Assembly: GCA_027366115.1 (NCBI GenBank)
Contig: DAHXLH010000215.1
Span: forward strand, 1 to 35,594
Reading direction: 5' to 3'
From: Phycisphaerales bacterium
GTDB taxonomy: Bacteria > Planctomycetota > Phycisphaerae > WQYP01
DNA length: 35,594 bases
Under the pieces are notes generated by a model. That model did not search any database and was not told the origin of the DNA. It worked only from the letters and a program-made list of their open reading frames with translations. A program made the translations under genes and the position numbers. This document shows positions 1 to 35,594 of the stretch, in pieces (the first letter of the stretch is position 1; every line of letters begins with the position of its first letter).

Positions 1-550
1 GCAAATTGAGGTGGCTTTTGATATTGATGTCAACGGCATTCTCAATGTGAAAGCCAAGGACAAAGCCACCGGCAAGGAAAGCAAGGTGGAAATCAAGGGC
101 CATAGCGGTTTGTCCAAGGATGAAATCGAACGCATGAAGAAGGAAGCGGAGGCTCATTCGGCTGAAGATAAAGCTCGTCGTGAACTTGTTGATTTAAAGA
201 ACCGCGCCGAGGCAGTTACTCTGCAGGTGGAACGTGAATTGCAGGAACACGGCAACAAGATTACACCGCAGGAACGCGGCGATCTTGAATCTGCGGTGAA
301 TCAGTTGAAGGAAGTCACGAAACAGGAAGATAAAGCCGCCATTGAAAAGGCCTTGGAAAACCTGAATCGTGCCCGGATGAAACTAGGCGAAGCGGCCTAC
401 AAGGCCGCCTCCGAAGCCGGGGCAGCGGGTGCTGTGGGCACCGGGGCCGGCGAAGGTCCCACGGCCGGTGGCGCGGCGGCACCCGATGCTGCGGCTGATC
501 AGGGGAAAAAGCCGGACGATGTTATTGATGCGGAATACGAGGTCAAGTAA
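1..550 (+). CDS. dnaK: Molecular chaperone DnaK (Hsp70), C-terminal fragment; the 5' end lies outside the window
   Basis: The frame is open from base 2 to the window edge. The translation [47 protein letters not shown] matches the conserved end of the Hsp70 substrate-binding domain and the helical lid. It is followed by the usual Ala/Gly-rich tail ending [10 protein letters not shown], with stop TAA at 548-550. Confidence 0.95.
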
Positions 551-8839: not shown

Positions 8840-9652
8840 ATGCCGCATCAACCATCAGGTAATCCTGCAGCTATGCCCGAACAAGATGTACTAGATGCAC
8901 GGGCGAAAGCGTGGCAGACTCGCCCATTGCTGCGGCTGGTGTATCACGGTTATTTCCAGTCCATGGCGGAGCAGTTTGTACGGCGATCGGTGGAGGGCGG
9001 AAAACCGCATGGCGTGGTGGTGGAAATTGGCGGGGGGGCTGGACACTTCAAAGCGTTTTATCCGGAAATGATCGTCACCGATCTGGTGCCGACGCGCCAT
9101 ATTGATTTGGCAGCCGATGCCTTGCACCTGCCGTTTGCGGACGGTAGCGTAGATAATCTGGTTATGCAGGATGTGCTGCACCATATTGCATATCCGCTAT
9201 CTTTTTTCTCCGAAGCAATCCGCATTTTATCTCCCGGTGGCCGCCTGGTGATGGTTGAACCATTTATTTCTCCCCTCTCACATGTACTATATAAGCTTTC
9301 GCATCCCGAGCCTGTCAATATGCGGGCAAAGATTTTCCGCGAGCCGGGGGATGCGTCGGGGGCTGATCCGGCGGCATTTGTCGGCAGTGGTGCGTTCGAC
9401 GCTAATCAGGCAATTCCGACTCTGCTGTTTTTTCGGTATGCTGAGAAATTTAACCGCCGATTTCCCAATTTGGTCATCCGCGAGCGTAAAGTTCACAGTA
9501 TGATTGCCTATCCCTTATCCGGGGGCTTTTCCAAACCCGTACTCCTGCCGATGATGGCGGTGCCCGCTGTGCGCGTGTTGGAAAATCTTCTCTCGCCACT
9601 GGCACCGTGGCTGGCATTTCGTATGCTTATTGCGCTGGAGAAGGTTCCCTGA
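8840..9652 (+). CDS. Class I SAM-dependent methyltransferase (Methyltransf_11-like)
   Basis: Motif I is VVVEIGGGAGHF. Downstream come LPFADGSVDNLVMQDVLHHI and ILSPGGRLVMVEP, typical of the small-molecule methyltransferase fold. Confidence 0.8.
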   Translation: MPHQPSGNPAAMPEQDVLDARAKAWQTRPLLRLVYHGYFQSMAEQFVRRSVEGGKPHGVVVEIGGGAGHFKAFYPEMIVTDLVPTRHIDLAADALHLPFADGSVDNLVMQDVLHHIAYPLSFFSEAIRILSPGGRLVMVEPFISPLSHVLYKLSHPEPVNMRAKIFREPGDASGADPAAFVGSGAFDANQAIPTLLFFRYAEKFNRRFPNLVIRERKVHSMIAYPLSGGFSKPVLLPMMAVPAVRVLENLLSPLAPWLAFRMLIALEKVP

Positions 9653-9731
9653 AAACCGACCTCGCGCCAACACGGGACACTCCGGCGGGAAAGCACTATA
9701 ATCGATTGGAGATGTTAATTCGGAGTTATCT

Positions 9732-10235
9732 GTGATTATTGACAGTACGGTTGAACCGGTTCTTCCACTTTTGCGGGCTGTAGGCAAGATCCCCAGTGGG
9801 TTATTTATTCTTGTGACAGGTGAAGGCCCGCAGTTATCGGCCATGCTGGTGTCATTTGTCCAGCAGTTAAGTTTTGAGCCGCTGTGCATTGGCGTGGCGA
9901 TTCACAAAGACCGGGAGATCGGTACCCGTATTGAAAAATCGGGCTTTTTTACCCTCAATATATGTTCCGCCGGGGATAAAGGACTGTTGCGCAAATACGC
10001 CCGCCAAGCCCTGACGGGAGACGCGGCATTGGCCGAGGTGAGGCACCACAAATTGCCGGACGGGGGGATCGTCCTGCCTGAAGCCTGCGGGTTTGTGCAT
10101 TGCCGATATTTTGCCCGCGTGAACTATCACTCCGATCATGAGTTGTTTATTGGCATAGCCCAGGATGGGGATCTGACCGCTGATTCTGTGGCCAAGCCGA
10201 TGATTCATACACGGCACGACGGCTCAAAGTATTAG
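9732..10235 (+). CDS. Flavin-reductase-like (FMN-binding split-barrel) domain protein
   Basis: 167 aa with a GTG start. IPSGLFILVTGEG...SAMLVSFVQQLSFEPLCIGVAI and HELFIGIAQDGDL resemble the flavin reductase-like domain pattern. Confidence 0.65.
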   Translation: MIIDSTVEPVLPLLRAVGKIPSGLFILVTGEGPQLSAMLVSFVQQLSFEPLCIGVAIHKDREIGTRIEKSGFFTLNICSAGDKGLLRKYARQALTGDAALAEVRHHKLPDGGIVLPEACGFVHCRYFARVNYHSDHELFIGIAQDGDLTADSVAKPMIHTRHDGSKY

Positions 10236-30778: not shown

Positions 30779-31543
30779 GTGGCCCTGCGAATGCTAAACT
30801 TGTGCATCTTTGCTTGTGCCTGCGCCCTGCTTTTGCCCGTGTCCGCCCCGGCGGTTATGGCGAAAGCTTCCATCACCCTGACCGGGCGCATCAGATCCTC
30901 GCACCGCATCATCCGTATCGAAGCCGTTGAGCGTAACCGAGCGAACGTGCTGGCATTAAGCACCAATAAACCCACCGCCTGGGTGTTTCCAGGAAAAATT
31001 AATTCCGCCGGAACATTTCGTATTCCGGGCATTATTCCAGGTCACCGTTATGACCTGATTGTTTTTACCGCCAAGGCCCGCTGGGAAGGCGTGAATATGA
31101 ATTATTACCGCCCGGTTGAACCCGGCCCTCCGATGACCCCCGGCGATCTAAAACAAATTGTCAATTTCATTGAAAAAATTCCCCGCTTTACCAATTACAA
31201 CCGTCCCCTTTGGATTGCGGGCGATCATAACCATGCCACACTGGTGGTAGAACAGATTCGGAGCCATTCATTTTATTCTGGCCATCAGGGATCAATTATT
31301 TTTCGCGTGGCTGTATGGTATTTTGAACGCTATTACGCCGGCTGGCAGAAGGTCAGTAATCTCGGCAAGGTGATGACGCGATGGCGCGGCCCGGCAAATC
31401 AAATTACCAATCCGTGGCAATATCTTCCGGCGCTAGGGGATATTGCGGTTTCAAGTGCCGGCACATTCAAGCCCATTGATGTCACGCTGCCCACGCCCAG
31501 CCCGCATCATGGCCTGGATGGTGCAATCCCCGCGGGGAAATAA
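30779..31543 (+). CDS. Secreted hypothetical protein
   Basis: 254 aa. The signal peptide is MALRMLNLCIFACACALLLPVSAPAVMA-KA. The N-terminal part (TLTGRI...GTFRIPGIIPGHRYDLIVFT) resembles a carboxypeptidase-regulatory-like beta-sandwich. The rest was not recognised. Its stop overlaps the start of the next gene (TAATG). Confidence 0.55.
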   Translation: MALRMLNLCIFACACALLLPVSAPAVMAKASITLTGRIRSSHRIIRIEAVERNRANVLALSTNKPTAWVFPGKINSAGTFRIPGIIPGHRYDLIVFTAKARWEGVNMNYYRPVEPGPPMTPGDLKQIVNFIEKIPRFTNYNRPLWIAGDHNHATLVVEQIRSHSFYSGHQGSIIFRVAVWYFERYYAGWQKVSNLGKVMTRWRGPANQITNPWQYLPALGDIAVSSAGTFKPIDVTLPTPSPHHGLDGAIPAGK

Positions 31544-33003
31544 TGTTTTATCAGAGGTATTTTGCCGCCATGCCCAAGACCAGCATCGACCGCATTTTGA
31601 ACTGGAGTATTCGAATTTTGCTTGGCGCGGTGGTGCTTTTCGCAGCGATCGGCCTGTTTCGTCACTTTGACCACAATGCGGATTCCCGCTCCGCTGATGG
31701 TCAATATAATGTCAAGAATTTCGGAGCCGCCGGTAACGCTGTAACCTTGGATACAGCCGCAATTCAGCGGGCTATCGACACATGCAGCCGCTATGGCGGC
31801 GGAAAAGTGGTGTTTCCCGCCGGAACGTATTTGTGTGGCACACTGCAATTAAAAAGTAACGTGACACTGGACCTGCAAACCGGCTCGGAGATATTCGGTT
31901 CTCCCGATATTAAAAACTACCATACCGTTGATCCTTTTATTGACGGCGACGGGCAGGCCTTTGGCTACTGCTTAATTGGCGCAAATCACGCCGATAATAT
32001 CGGAATTGAGGGTACCGGTGCCATCAATGGTGACGGCGTAGGCTTCCGCGGCAATCGGCCTTTTTTAATCCGCCTGGCGCATTGCAACGGAATAACCGTG
32101 CGCGATGTGACGCTTGAACAGTCGGCCGCATGGGGCCTGAATTTGTACCGTTGTCGGCAGATTCTCGTGGATCATGTACATATCTGGAACCATGCTAATT
32201 ACAACAATGACGGCATTGATGTGGATTCCAGCGAACTGGTGCATATCACGCATTGCGATATTAATTCCGAGGATGACTGCATTTGTCTTAAAACCACCAC
32301 ACCCACCAGTTGTTCACATATTCGAGTGGATCATTGCCGTTTAAGCAGCCAGTGCGCGGCGGTAAAATTTGGCAGTGAAACCATGGGTACGATGCGCGAT
32401 ATTCATGTCAAGGACTGTTACGAGTATGACACCCGCCTGGGCGGAATTAAAATTTTATCCGTGGATGGTGCCCATATCAGCAATGTTCGATTCGACAATA
32501 TTCAAATGAGAAATGTGGACATGCCTATATTCATCCGCCTTGGCGGCCGGCTTTCCACATTTCATCCGGGGCAAGACCCCCGGAATGTGGGCAGCATCAA
32601 CAATATCGTCATTCGTAATGTCACCGCGCAGGCATCCAATCAGGGGCGATTGCTATTTCCCACTGGAATATTTATTACGGGTATTCCCAACTATGATGTC
32701 GGCCACGTTCTGCTGGAAAATATTTCCATTACTCTTTCCGGCGGTGCACCGGCGGGCGCCGCAAAAATACAGGTGCCTGAAAAAATCACCGCCTTCCCGG
32801 ACTTTTTCCTCTTCGGCTTATATCTGCCGGCTTATGGCATGTACGCCCGGCACGCCGATGATCTGGTACTGAACAATGTCCGCTTTCAACTCGAAAACCC
32901 CGACGCCCGGCCCGCCATTCTCTGTCAAAACGTCAAGCGCATTGCATGGACCAATGCCCCCGCCCCCGTGATGCAGACCCTGCCCCCGGCCAATCCGCGT
33001 TAA
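31543..33003 (+). CDS. Glycoside hydrolase family 28-like (polygalacturonase/rhamnogalacturonase-type right-handed beta-helix), N-terminally anchored
   Basis: An N-terminal TM segment (IRILLGAVVLFAAIGLF) is followed by YNVKNFGAAGNAVTLDTAAIQRAIDTC..GGGKVVFPAGTYLCGTLQLKSNVTL, the pectate-lyase-3-type start. The catalytic-region motifs NNDGIDVDS and NSEDDCICLKT are present, as are repeated beta-helix turns. Confidence 0.8.
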   Translation: MFYQRYFAAMPKTSIDRILNWSIRILLGAVVLFAAIGLFRHFDHNADSRSADGQYNVKNFGAAGNAVTLDTAAIQRAIDTCSRYGGGKVVFPAGTYLCGTLQLKSNVTLDLQTGSEIFGSPDIKNYHTVDPFIDGDGQAFGYCLIGANHADNIGIEGTGAINGDGVGFRGNRPFLIRLAHCNGITVRDVTLEQSAAWGLNLYRCRQILVDHVHIWNHANYNNDGIDVDSSELVHITHCDINSEDDCICLKTTTPTSCSHIRVDHCRLSSQCAAVKFGSETMGTMRDIHVKDCYEYDTRLGGIKILSVDGAHISNVRFDNIQMRNVDMPIFIRLGGRLSTFHPGQDPRNVGSINNIVIRNVTAQASNQGRLLFPTGIFITGIPNYDVGHVLLENISITLSGGAPAGAAKIQVPEKITAFPDFFLFGLYLPAYGMYARHADDLVLNNVRFQLENPDARPAILCQNVKRIAWTNAPAPVMQTLPPANPR

Positions 33004-33012
33004 CGCCGCCCG

Positions 33013-33066
33013 AAACAAAGGTACCTGACACCTTTTCCTAAAAAAAGGTGTCAGGTACCTTTGTTT
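33013..33066. terminator. Bidirectional rho-independent terminator formed by a perfect 24-bp-stem palindrome
   Basis: AAACAAAGGTACCTGACACCTTTT (33013-33036), a 6-nt loop CCTAAA, and AAAAGGTGTCAGGTACCTTTGTTT (33043-33066). There are T-rich tracts on both strands. It lies between the convergent stops at 33003 (+) and 33069 (-). Confidence 0.85.
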
Positions 33067-33068
33067 TA

Positions 33069-35201
33069 TTAAATCGCCTTGTTCAGGCCTTCGTGCCGGA
33101 CGTTCCAGGAGCCGTCCTGGGGGAAACCTGGGGCATTGTGTTGCGGACCGCCGTCCCAACCTGCGGCCAGAAATGCCGCTGCATAAAGTAAAGCGCCGTC
33201 TCCCGGAATATAGGGGCATGGACCGCCGGTGTTGATGCCGCGAATATCAAAATGATTGCCGTGAACTTTTGCGGTCAGGGCCGCAATCGCAATCCGCGGT
33301 TCACCAACCCGCGCCGCCGCCATGGCCATCCATGGCAAATCCCATCCATATTCATGATTACCCGCCCAGTCCCAGGATTTCCAGGTTTTCAATACCGTTG
33401 CATGAGCTGTTGCGGGGTCCACCCCGGCAATCCGCGGTAACATGCCGTAAACTCCGATCATATCGGGATGATTACTGCGTATGGTCGTGTAGGTCGCTTT
33501 GGCCCACTGCTCGGAAATCACATAAACGCCCTGATCCATAGGCAGGGGGGCCAAATGTTTCAGGACATGCGCCCAACGGGCTTCCGGGGGTAATCCCATG
33601 CGGTGCCTCCATGTTTGAGCGGTAGTTAATGCGAACCGCCAATAGGCCAATTCATAAATACTGTTGCTGGTAACGCCATGTTCACACGCCGGCATAACAG
33701 GCGTAAGATCGTAACGCTTCAGCGTGCGGTTCCATGTTGGAAAGCTGGCCACGTAATCCGCGGTGGAAAAAATAATATCACGCCATAGCTTAAGCGTTCC
33801 GGAGGTCGGGGACTGACGGTAATGCAATTCGGCAAAAAAGATCGGATGCGGCTGCTGCCAAGCCAGAATATTATCTCCAAACCACGGGACATTCCGCCCG
33901 CCGGGGCCGGTGCGCTTGGGCCATTTGACGCCGTGATAATTCAATTGCCTGGCCAGCGCCCGCGCTACCGGCTTGATCCGCCAATAGAAAGCCAACTCGC
34001 GCATCGCTAATGGCCAGCGGTTCCACAACGCATAATGTCCGATATGCCAGACCGCCATTTCCATGTTAGCCTGACTGCTCCATTGATCCAGCCCCATTAA
34101 ACCGATTTCCGCGCCAGGCATATCCCCGGCTTCCTGCACAGCCATCTGATATTGCGCCAGCACAATCCGCCGTTCGAGTTCCGGTGCCGCAGGGTTACTG
34201 CTGCCGGAAAGATCAATGGCTCCGCCACTGTTCCAAAACCGTTCCCAATGATTGGCCGCGGCCTTTTCCGTTTCCGGAAAGCTCTGGTGCCCCTGTGCCA
34301 AATTCACGGAATCGGGGGCGAACCGGCAGGTCAATTCAATTGTGTTCTGGCCCGTCAGCGGAACAAGCCGCCACGTGTGAGGAAGTGTATCGGGATAAAT
34401 GGCCGCATGTTTTCCGGTGAACATAACGCCATAACGTGACGAATCCGCGACGCGCTGCAAATGCACCCAATTGTCCGCGCGTCGCACGACCAGCGTCTGA
34501 TGTTTTCCCGTGGCATGAAAATCTCCAACCCAAGGCCCCTGGGTGCGATCCGGATAAGGAAAGTCCAGGATGATCCAGAAACGCCCGGTAGCCAGGGCGG
34601 AAGATGTTATCCGCACAGCCAGTCTATCGGCTTCCGCGTCGCAAAGGCTTTCGACTACGACGCGTTGCTGGTGCAACCGGAATACCGCACGTTGTTTACC
34701 AGTAAAAATGTCAATATGTCTATCAATCCCTGAGATATCTTCCGGCTTCAGCGGTGCGCCGTCGGCATGTACCATCCGCAGTCGCCCCAGATTCATGCGA
34801 TGCGGATTCTCCCGCATCCAGTGGTATAGTGCGTTTTCCGCGGCCGGCCAGATTTGCGGGCCTGTAAGGCGGCCGCGCTCGTACGTGCCGGTAATCGGGA
34901 CATCCGCCCGCGTATAACCGGCCGGCATCGGCGACCAATTCCAACCCCAGTCCGTCATGATGTTACCGGCAAAGGTTTGCAATCCGGTGGCATCACAATT
35001 AAACACGGCACCGCCATTACCGAGTTGGAAAACCCCATCCAGTTGATTGTATTGAAAGTTATGCCGGGTGACCAAGGCTTTGCGATCAAGTTTTGACGTG
35101 ATCCTGCGCCCGGAAGCCGGCCGCTTGGGTGCCGTGGCCAATGTCACGGCACCAAGAAGTAGATCCCGCCGTGAGCAATCCTCTGTGGTACGTCCAGCCA
35201 T
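33069..35201 (-). CDS. Large Tat-signal protein of unassigned family, glycoside-hydrolase-like (beta-sandwich N-terminal region plus helical C-terminal region)
   Basis: 710 aa with a GGAGAA RBS 7 nt before ATG 35201 and a twin-arginine motif CSRRDLLLGAVTLATA. GNG-containing N-terminal motifs (FQLGNGGAVFNCDATGLQTF) recall the super-sandwich domains of GH65/GH95-type enzymes. The helical C-terminal half (NSIYELAYWRFALTTAQTWRHRMGL) recalls (alpha/alpha)6 barrels. No family was confirmed. Confidence 0.55.
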   Translation of the reverse strand: MAGRTTEDCSRRDLLLGAVTLATAPKRPASGRRITSKLDRKALVTRHNFQYNQLDGVFQLGNGGAVFNCDATGLQTFAGNIMTDWGWNWSPMPAGYTRADVPITGTYERGRLTGPQIWPAAENALYHWMRENPHRMNLGRLRMVHADGAPLKPEDISGIDRHIDIFTGKQRAVFRLHQQRVVVESLCDAEADRLAVRITSSALATGRFWIILDFPYPDRTQGPWVGDFHATGKHQTLVVRRADNWVHLQRVADSSRYGVMFTGKHAAIYPDTLPHTWRLVPLTGQNTIELTCRFAPDSVNLAQGHQSFPETEKAAANHWERFWNSGGAIDLSGSSNPAAPELERRIVLAQYQMAVQEAGDMPGAEIGLMGLDQWSSQANMEMAVWHIGHYALWNRWPLAMRELAFYWRIKPVARALARQLNYHGVKWPKRTGPGGRNVPWFGDNILAWQQPHPIFFAELHYRQSPTSGTLKLWRDIIFSTADYVASFPTWNRTLKRYDLTPVMPACEHGVTSNSIYELAYWRFALTTAQTWRHRMGLPPEARWAHVLKHLAPLPMDQGVYVISEQWAKATYTTIRSNHPDMIGVYGMLPRIAGVDPATAHATVLKTWKSWDWAGNHEYGWDLPWMAMAAARVGEPRIAIAALTAKVHGNHFDIRGINTGGPCPYIPGDGALLYAAAFLAAGWDGGPQHNAPGFPQDGSWNVRHEGLNKAI
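34425..34508 (-). repeat. Proximal arm of an exact 84-nt inverted repeat, inside the 710-aa gene (codons 232-259)
   Basis: Base-by-base comparison shows 34425-34508 is the exact reverse complement of 35511-35594. Confidence 0.95.
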
Positions 35202-35510
35202 GACAAGCTTCTCCGCAGTTAATTAATTTGCCATTTGATATTCTGGACACGACCGATGAAATTTTATCGCATCTTGATCGAACCGCAATGGCATTACTGC
35301 ATAACTGGTTTGGCAACCGCGATTTGTTTACTGATGACACCCCAAAGCCCTGGAGCATGGGGTGTTATTGGTCAAGCCTGCGCCACACCGCCGTTTTCGG
35401 CCTTTCCGCAAGATATGGCAACCTCCAGCAGGATTGTTAAATACAATAGTAAAGCGGTTCAAGCGTTAAAAAGTGCTAAATAACTGGCTGTTTATAGGAT
35501 CAGTCGGGCT

Positions 35511-35594
35511 GGAAAACATCAGACGCTGGTCGTGCGACGCGCGGACAATTGGGTGCATTTGCAGCGCGTCGCGGATTCGTCACGTTATGGCGTT
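35511..35594 (+). repeat. Distal arm of the exact inverted repeat, truncated by the window end
   Basis: The last 84 nt of the window are the reverse complement of 34425-34508. Identity starts abruptly at 35511 (35510 does not match) and is still perfect at the final base. Confidence 0.95.

Follow-up and report, generated by a model that had tools for sequence, protein, structure and literature searches.

At the right-hand end of a 35,594-nt stretch of DNA from a Phycisphaerales bacterium (hereafter, the window), part of a gene for a glycoside-hydrolase-like protein reappears in inverted orientation and without a single mismatch, and the question that this locus raises is whether the repeat is a genetic switch, the trace of a genuine rearrangement, or a product of sequencing and assembly. 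An earlier note, headed by a possible intragenic inverton, presented the switch, a dead inverted duplication, and an artefact as equally viable. The evidence presented here shifts this balance clearly in favour of an artefact, and the inverton headline is not supported. In our estimate, the probability is about 0.65 that the distal arm of the repeat is a terminal fold-back (strand-switch) chimera or a misjoin, with no second copy of the segment in the genome.

Geometry of the inverted repeat

The two arms match at 84 of 84 nt (100% complementarity) across a spacer of 1002 nt (Table 1), exactly as the earlier note described, and they form the only pair of inverted repeats of at least 25 nt in the entire 35.6-kb window. 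The chance expectation for such a pair is approximately 1.7e-42, so chance cannot explain the repeat. Identity sets in abruptly: position 35510 is T, against a G in the reverse complement of 34509, whereas from 35511 onward the match is perfect and is still perfect at the last base of the window, 35594. The proximal arm encodes residues 232-259 (GKHQTLVVRRADNWVHLQRVADSSRYGV) of the minus-strand open reading frame (ORF), and the distal arm is read on the plus strand in the codon phase of the protein, downstream of an in-frame TAA; the nine codons between this stop and the arm (LAVYRISRA) include no ATG, GTG, or TTG. In all these particulars, the earlier description of the repeat proved accurate. 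The distal arm is identical to the gene in the window itself, compared with only 88-91% nucleotide identity to the genes of the relatives, and so derives from the same genome.

Table 1. Features of the repeat-bearing end of the window
Feature	Position	Strand	Description
710-aa gene	33069-35201	-	Uncharacterised glycoside-hydrolase-like protein; ORF and translation
Proximal arm	34425-34508	-	Codons 232-259 of the 710-aa gene; genuine gene sequence
Segment between arms	34509-35510		1002 nt; codons 1-231, start codon 35199-35201, and 309 nt of upstream non-coding DNA
Native upstream non-coding region	35202-35510	-	Aligns with L003, L004, and L005; 13-nt and 1-2-nt indels
75-aa ORF	35256-35483	+	Its stop is TAA 35481-35483; no Pfam match
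Distal arm	35511-35594	+	Reverse complement of 34425-34508 without mismatch; extends to the end of the window
Breakpoint microhomology	35511-35516	+	GGAAAA, of which only GG is certain; gene interior GGAAAACAT versus native intergenic sequence of relatives GGTAAAAAAAA

Related loci and the break at the junction

Six related loci, denoted L001 to L006, differ in how far they reach toward the junction. L004 and L005, from metagenome-assembled genomes of Phycisphaerales/Planctomycetota, encode proteins with 87% amino acid identity to the 710-aa protein, and L006 encodes one with 86% identity. L003 is equally close (86%), but its contig starts at the equivalent of approximately 35385, short of the junction, and is uninformative in this respect. 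In L001 and L002, where the proteins are 73% identical, the upstream regions are too diverged for alignment, and both loci contain an unrelated 107-aa ORF there.

In blastn comparisons, L004 and L005 align with the window at approximately 85-86% nucleotide identity from the gene through its upstream region, and the alignment ends at 35516, that is, at the junction and in the middle of intergenic DNA, where the sequence of the relatives is continuous; the upstream alignment with L006 reaches only 35270. Beyond the junction, L004, L005, and L006 all share an intergenic sequence that includes a T-run, TTGACA, and the palindrome TTTAACCGGTTAAA, followed, approximately 110 nt further on, by the start of a divergent gene for a PEP-CTERM protein of 319-358 aa. 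The window lacks both this conserved A/T-rich intergenic region and the PEP-CTERM gene, and carries in their place the reverse complement of its own gene. The proximal-arm segment is present once in each of the six loci, at 88-91% nucleotide identity to the window, and no second copy or comparable inverted repeat was detected in the five related loci with flanks, nor any comparable inverted repeat within several kilobases in L001, L004, L005, and L006.

Read in the sense of the gene, the junction is ...TTTTTTTTACC|AGCCCGAC in the relatives and ...GATGTTTTCC|AGCCCGAC in the window. The microhomology at this point is certain only for GG at 35511-35512 (2 nt), and GGAAAA fits the GGTAAAA of the relatives only if one base is skipped. 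The repeat that could belong to the native genome comes down to GG(T)AAAA, at most 6 nt. On the gene side, the GGAAAA hexamer is not conserved, being replaced by CAGAAG in L003, L004, and L005. An exact search of genome contigs with the 38 nt preceding the junction gave no match and thus no conspecific sequence past 35510, and the junction-adjacent motif common to the relatives, CCGAMTGATCCTATAAAC, was found in nine metagenome loci, none of them related to the window; the public collections searched thus yielded nothing conspecific.

The intergenic DNA on the near side of the junction also bears on what the segment between the arms might do. The earlier note placed the promoter of the gene in this segment, but a sigma-70 promoter scan of 35202-35510 found no sigma-70-like site. 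The 75-aa plus-strand ORF that ends at the in-frame TAA was considered as a real divergent gene and rejected, its frames in L003, L004, and L005 being broken by stops and frameshifts; judged by its lack of conservation, it is probably not a gene.

A real, strain-specific inverted partial duplication is one rival reading of these observations. Under this scenario, template switching during replication at TTTTCC/GGAAAA, or some other event, would have placed a copy running from codon 232 onward 309 nt ahead of the gene, and the assembler would have halted on meeting repeat sequence already incorporated; what was inserted would be a pseudogene fragment lacking a start codon. The exact identity of the arms would fit a very recent event, the origin of the copy in the same genome is what a duplication requires, and the missing start codon and the stop ahead of the copy are as expected of a dead fragment; moreover, contigs do end at unresolved repeats. 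However, none of the related loci with flanks contains such a copy, its insertion would disrupt or push aside the conserved promoter region that serves the divergent PEP-CTERM gene, and no more than 84 nt of it are visible. Long perfect inverted repeats 1 kb apart are, in addition, recombinationally unstable. Taken together, these considerations make a real duplication unlikely.

The gene product, recombinases, and the proposed switch

The 710-aa protein has no sequence match in Pfam, NCBIfam, or the PDB (a PDB profile search returned only 6w0p, E 0.75), and an exact-protein look-up showed that this very protein is absent from the records. It belongs, nevertheless, to a large family, with more than 2700 homologues of approximately 700 aa, PF14498 being recorded for only a few of these; a GH28 gene adjoins the gene in the window. 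The AlphaFold2 model of the protein (pLDDT 85.9, pTM 0.88) consists of an N-terminal beta-sandwich (residues ~40-300) and an (alpha/alpha)6 barrel (~308-700), with the boundary near 300-308. The top Foldseek match of this model is the GH65 alpha-1,2-glucosidase 7fe3 (E 2.8e-21, TM 0.68), and other matches include GH95 fucosidases and GH65 phosphorylases, with 4ufc, 2rdy, and 4ktr alongside 7fe3 at E 1e-20 to 1e-21. The product is thus predicted to adopt a fold of the GH65/GH95/GH139 type, sharing with these hydrolases and phosphorylases the predicted beta-sandwich and (alpha/alpha)6 barrel (Foldseek E 1e-18 to 1e-21, TM 0.6-0.68), but only 11-14% sequence identity. Its N-terminus carries an RR motif, SRRDLLLGAV, and the Tat signal attributed to it by the earlier note is not confirmed: the motif resembles a twin-arginine motif by eye, but no Tat-signal model of Pfam or NCBIfam matches at E <= 0.1. 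An Rfam search of 33000-35594 yielded only sub-threshold hairpin matches, at the palindrome 33013-33068.

In the structural model, residues 232-259 make up three beta-strands inside the beta-sandwich (E234-241, E245-252, E255-264). Given that the predicted domain boundary lies at ~300-308, the arm is not a sensible place for a module swap. This bears directly on the layout that the earlier note likened to hsdS-type and shufflon-type switches, in which the distal arm would begin a silent alternative C-terminal cassette, to be joined to the promoter and the N-terminus when the arms recombine. The distal arm is indeed in the codon phase of the protein on the plus strand and start-less, as a silent cassette would be, and the start codon, the N-terminus, and the upstream DNA all lie between the arms. 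However, there is a single pair of repeats, the segment common to both arms falls in the middle of the beta-sandwich rather than between domains, the more than 2700 homologues are single proteins of ~700 aa, no cassette accompanies the gene in the five relatives with flanks, and the copy replaces conserved native sequence exactly at the microhomology breakpoint. We know of no precedent for swapping the catalytic barrel of a two-domain glycoside-hydrolase fold.

Both an inverton and a cassette switch would be expected to come with a recombinase gene nearby. The earlier note saw no recombinase gene in the window, and a Pfam search of its 27 ORFs agrees, with no recombinase, integrase, or invertase in the 35.6 kb. 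The flanking DNA, which the same note proposed as a place to look for a tyrosine or serine recombinase, was searched in the relative L005 over the 10 kb upstream of the gene and yielded none. With no recombinase to add to the points above, we give the cassette switch the slimmest chance of all the readings considered here.

The same search weighs on the possibility that the segment 34509-35510 is inverted, without any duplication, in a subpopulation of cells, and that the contig walked into the corresponding branch of the assembly graph. Such an inversion could be spontaneous and microhomology-mediated, or else programmed, in the latter case as a partial intragenic inverton that acts as an OFF switch by detaching codons 232 onward from the promoter and the first 231 codons. 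The geometry fits, because the junction of 35510 with the reverse complement of 34508 is the same as that of 34508 with the reverse complement of 35510 on the other strand, and TTTTCC (34503-34508) and GGAAAA (35511-35516) would constitute a minimal inverted repeat, provided that GGAAAA is also the native sequence. Partial and intragenic invertons do exist in other bacteria, and the one in thiC has a repeat of 11 nt (PMC10028968). Here, however, the candidate repeat is at most 6 nt, is interrupted by a T in all three relatives, lies far below the size of known recombinase sites, and is expected by chance; its gene-side hexamer is not conserved in L003, L004, and L005; no invertase gene is present in the window or in the 10 kb upstream in L005; no relative has a repeat at this place; and the second junction that an inversion should produce is not visible. 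We therefore regard an inversion variant as distinctly unlikely. The more specific proposition of a genuine inversion of 34509-35510 that recurs in some of the cells, as a partial intragenic inverton in a Phycisphaerae-like member of the Planctomycetota that uncouples the promoter and the first 231 codons of a secreted GH65/GH95-fold glycoside hydrolase from the catalytic barrel, or else of a copy that is real and diverges so as to allow a C-terminal swap, appears very improbable.

Origin of the junction and comparison with known systems

We favour the terminal fold-back because the alignment with the relatives breaks exactly at the junction and nothing follows the copy in the sequence, because the apparent microhomology at the junction amounts to only 2-6 nt, because no second copy or repeat occurs in the five related loci and no recombinase was found, and, over a switch, because the arm lies inside the beta-sandwich, off any domain boundary. 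In form, the junction is as expected of a fold-back: past position 35510, the sequence continues with the reverse complement of 34508, in the same locus and 1002 nt away, so that the molecule's own sequence is copied, and native DNA that runs on unbroken in the relatives is interrupted. Among the 15 other loci compared, none ends in a terminal fold-back, in a sample too small to provide a background rate.

The sequence would, under the favoured reading, leave the gene for the native upstream intergenic DNA, switch strand at 35510/35511, and re-enter the gene 1 kb away, with the read-back ending 84 nt later. The likeliest origin would be one or a few strand-switch chimeric molecules, formed during amplification or library construction when a nascent 3' end re-annealed, at TTTTCC/GGAAAA, to the other strand of its own fragment; alternatively, the assembler may have taken a wrong branch. 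Either event could extend a contig at a point where coverage of the true continuation was poor; that continuation would be intergenic DNA rich in A/T and in homopolymers, and is expected to resemble GGTAAAAAAAATAATTAG. A simple de Bruijn k-mer tail was also considered and is not supported, the repeat length of 84 being even and matching no k or k±1 for 55, 77, 99, 127, or 141; this mismatch leaves the artefact reading standing.

We infer, then, that the junction is of technical origin and that the end of the window is the end of a contig. The window begins within a 3' fragment of dnaK, which fits its being a whole, fragmentary contig; if it were instead cut arbitrarily from something longer, the repeat may extend past 35594 and be genuine. 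The break in the alignment with the relatives and the halt of a short-read assembler would equally follow from a real rearrangement, which could likewise leave microhomology at the junction.

If the artefact reading is right, the biology of the locus is ordinary, and the lesson is that, before an inverton is called, any exact inverted copy of nearby sequence that closes a contig should be checked against relatives and reads. Should the junction turn out to be real and recurrent, it would point to a phase-variable carbohydrate-active enzyme in Planctomycetota, a phylum in which, to our knowledge, no invertons have been described; at present, there is little support for this possibility. The uncharacterised family of the 710-aa protein, with its more than 2700 members and GH65/GH95-like fold, offers enzyme discovery a lead that is modest but on firmer ground.

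Of the known systems that the locus calls to mind, hsdS (the specificity subunit of type I restriction-modification) and the shufflons share with it an inverted copy that lies beside an expressed gene, repeats part of it in frame, and has no start codon. Those systems, however, have more than one repeat or cassette and a tyrosine recombinase encoded next to them, their repeats mark the boundaries between modules, and they are conserved from strain to strain; nothing of this kind was found here. The likeness to intragenic and partial intragenic invertons (Chanin et al., PMC10028968) consists in one repeat arm lying within coding sequence, such that the 5' part of the gene would flip. Known invertons have short repeats, require an invertase, and show up in reads in either orientation, whereas the 84-nt "repeat" in the window is the flank of a gene copied at the sequence end, with a candidate core of at most 6 nt, no invertase in sight, and no counterpart in the relatives.

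The closest parallel is with chimeric reads. In multiple displacement amplification (MDA), the main artefact is the inverted chimera, in which an intervening stretch is deleted and the joined ends are complementary over 2-21 nt (Lasken & Stockwell 2007, PMC1855051), and ordinary library preparation also yields strand-split or inverted chimeric reads (Haile et al., PMC6344851; PDSM model, PMC10908179). These papers describe single reads, whereas the junction reported here sits in assembled sequence, and its 1002-nt spacing presupposes either that the fragment exceeded 1 kb or that the amplification product was branched. In other respects the resemblance is close: two positions 1 kb apart in one locus are joined on opposite strands, the apparent complementarity at the junction is short, and the inverted sequence, set off by an intervening gap, is a copy of the molecule's own.

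The terminal inverted repeat

The window closes with an inverted repeat whose arms, by a reading of the sequence, a repeat finder and a direct string test alike, are exact reverse complements; it is the only inverted repeat of at least 25 nt in the 35,594 nt, and the chance expectation for such a pair is about 1.7e-42. The proximal arm corresponds exactly to codons 232-259 of a minus-strand ORF (33069-35201) for a 710-aa protein, and the distal arm extends to the window's final base. Identity ends at 35510, where a T is present and a G would be needed; an in-frame TAA (35481-35483) precedes the distal arm, with no ATG, GTG or TTG between them. Since the three approaches agree, the facts set out in the earlier note on this DNA (arms, coordinates, coding content, the T, the TAA) are correct, save for the Tat signal, where an SRRDLLLG motif can be spotted by eye but Tat-signal models gave no match, and the promoter placed within the spacer, as a scan of 35202-35510 for sigma-70-like sites gave none. 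By ORF annotation, the window otherwise consists of ordinary chromosomal DNA, and the dnaK fragment at its start suggests a fragmentary contig, broken within a conserved gene.

Features of the window and of the related loci beyond its end
Feature	Position	Strand	Details
Inverted repeat arms	34425-34508 (proximal) and 35511-35594 (distal)		84 nt each; spacer 1002 nt
dnaK (Hsp70) 3' fragment	11-550	+	matches profile positions 470-598; window begins inside gene
Other window genes			GH2 enzyme, Rrf2 regulator, cytochrome bd subunits I and II; MlaD, RpoD-like sigma factor, Mur ligase; aldehyde dehydrogenase, YchF, GGDEF-EAL protein; SSF transporter, M24 peptidase, BCCP, biotin carboxylase, GH28
254-aa ORF	30779-31543	+	between biotin carboxylase and GH28; no Pfam or NCBIfam match
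Perfect palindrome	33013-33066		24-nt arms AAACAAAGGTACCTGACACCTTTT, 6-nt loop; between convergent GH28 gene and 710-aa gene
Perfect 14-nt palindrome TTTAACCGGTTAAA beside TTGACA	L004 ~9620-9660; L005 ~9620-9660; L006 ~9760-9800		beyond window end

Related loci across the junction

Scanning a single genome for each species yielded three loci that encode proteins 86-87% identical to the 710-aa protein and that each include 10 kb of flank upstream: L004, from a Phycisphaerales MAG, and L005 and L006, from Planctomycetota MAGs. A further relative, L003, ends short of the junction, and the upstream regions of the more distant L001 and L002 are too diverged for alignment. In blastn, the window gives a single alignment with L004 and with L005, at about 85-86% nucleotide identity, that starts just beyond the stop codon, covers the gene and the non-coding DNA upstream of it, and ends at 35516, the junction; the upstream alignment with L006 reaches window 35270 only. 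In the gene sense, L005 reads ...GATTCTAATTATTTTTTTTACC up to the junction and AGCCCGACTGATCCTATAAAC after it, and the window reads ...CAGCGTCTGATGTTTTCC followed by the same AGCCCGACTGATCCTATAAAC. Left of the junction, L004, L005 and L006 still agree with one another; common to all three there are a T-run, a TTGACA hexamer and the perfect palindrome TTTAACCGGTTAAA, with a divergent gene for a PEP-CTERM protein of 319-358 aa starting about 110 nt further on. None of these is present in the window, where instead the interior of its own gene follows in reverse complement up to the last base. The native and the replacing sequence overlap in GG(T)AAAA alone (window 35511-35516; 2 nt certain, 6 nt at most). 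The distal arm matches the window's own gene at 100% identity and the genes of the relatives at 88-91%; it was therefore copied from that genome itself, and a co-assembled strain is not its source.

We favor a terminal fold-back artefact, with a probability of about 0.65, and the 84-nt feature is most likely no property of the genome. Any real rearrangement would likewise break the alignment with the relatives at a microhomology. A real, recent inverted partial duplication we consider unlikely. No exact match to the 38 nt preceding the junction was present in the species-representative genomes, and a metagenome scan with a motif that the window shares with the relatives returned unrelated chance matches only.

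The comparison also points to elements around the gene. Except for 13-nt and 1-2-nt indels, 35202-35510 can be aligned with its counterparts in L004 and L005, being covered by the ~85-86% blastn alignment that also spans the coding sequence; Rfam gave no match in this segment, a candidate for a conserved leader or regulatory region. The palindrome TTTAACCGGTTAAA with TTGACA, kept in L004, L005 and L006 in the intergenic region that separates the 710-aa gene from the divergent PEP-CTERM gene, could be an operator or promoter. The palindrome beyond the gene's 3' end has the appearance of a bidirectional terminator. Its core, AAGGTACCTGACACCTT, recurs at the corresponding site in L005 (2 copies) and L006 (3 copies) with different flanks, and the palindrome could represent a conserved hairpin or a REP-like element. 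Rfam returned sub-threshold hairpin matches alone, at 33013-33068. The L004 contig (DAHVEJ010000076.1) ends 85 nt past the gene's stop codon; since the window, L005 and L006 hold the hairpin there, it may be the cause of that assembly break.

The 710-aa protein and the proposed switch

The exact 710-aa protein is not on record, and Pfam, NCBIfam and PDB sequence searches gave no match. The family is large (more than 2700 homologues of ~700 aa at E <= 0.001), yet lacks a curated family model or a solved relative by sequence. A structure model built on 41 homologues (pLDDT 85.9, pTM 0.88) has an N-terminal beta-sandwich (~residues 40-300) and, after it, an (alpha/alpha)6 barrel, and Foldseek matched it to the GH65 alpha-1,2-glucosidase 7fe3 (E 2.8e-21, TM 0.68) and further to GH95 fucosidases, GH65 phosphorylases and GH139. 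The fold is thus confidently predicted to be GH65/GH95/GH139-like and the protein, on this model, a glycoside-hydrolase-like enzyme of an uncharacterised family. The GH28 gene adjoins it in the window and also in L001 and L002, and this proximity suggests that the enzyme takes part in degrading pectin or rhamnogalacturonan. In the same two loci, a 254-aa gene takes the position of the window's 254-aa ORF.

The earlier note had raised the possibility of an inverton. In L001-L006, the arm sequence is single copy, inside the gene, and no comparable inverted repeat was found within several kb in L001 or L004-L006. The gene-side breakpoint hexamer GGAAAA is CAGAAG in L003, L004 and L005; a conserved recombination site is absent there. 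The window encodes no recombinase, integrase or invertase; nor does L005, a proxy for the window's unseen side, carry a recombinase within 10 kb upstream of its copy of the gene. In the model, residues 232-259 form three mid-sandwich strands (E234-241, E245-252, E255-264), away from the sandwich/barrel boundary, so that the repeat is not positioned where a module swap would make structural sense. An hsdS- or shufflon-type switch, with the distal arm as a silent alternative C-terminal cassette, is very unlikely, the least probable of the readings. A 75-aa plus-strand ORF ending at the in-frame TAA was rejected as a gene, the relatives carrying stops and frameshifts there; by this comparison it appears to be a chance ORF in non-coding DNA. 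The repeat is real as sequence; the inverton interpretation is unsupported, given the relatives' alignment, the lack of a conserved site and of a recombinase, and the mid-domain arm.

What the junction could represent

Read on the other strand, the junction from 35510 to the reverse complement of 34508 is one from 34508 to the reverse complement of 35510. A simple inversion of 34509-35510 would have just this as its left junction, a point new with respect to the earlier note. Because the two are equal, the 84-nt second copy need not occur twice in any one molecule: the contig would walk A-B, then take a branch from B to the reverse complement of A, displaying the copy. Such a branch could stem from chimeric strand-switch molecules made in vitro, from a real inversion carried by some of the population, or from a real inverted duplication. 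A real inversion variant would account for the junction as it stands, but no conserved repeat or recombination site was found in the relatives compared, and no recombinase in the window or the 10 kb of L005; we regard it as quite unlikely and mostly spontaneous, its programmed share being very improbable.

For the fold-back artefact, a source is at hand, as strand-switch molecules made in vitro are documented as common (PMC1855051, PMC6344851, PMC10908179). The true continuation, judged by the relatives, is an A/T-rich intergenic stretch with many homopolymers, where a low-coverage metagenome assembly would likely run out of reads, and a single chimeric extension might then stay as the sole way forward. 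The arm length of 84 fits no usual k-mer size, so that it points to no particular assembler mechanism. Strand-split chimeric reads also arise in standard library preparation (PMC6344851), which likewise yields chimeric reads containing inverted-repeat sequences (PMC10908179). Among chimeras formed during MDA, more than 85% are inverted sequences in which the stretch in between is deleted, most of them intramolecular, and the junctions show 2-21 nt of complementarity (PMC1855051); the junction in the window, with an overlap of 2 nt for certain and 6 nt at most and a passage to the opposite strand, can be set beside these. In switches of the hsdS or shufflon type the repeats lie at module boundaries; the arm in the window falls within the predicted beta-sandwich.
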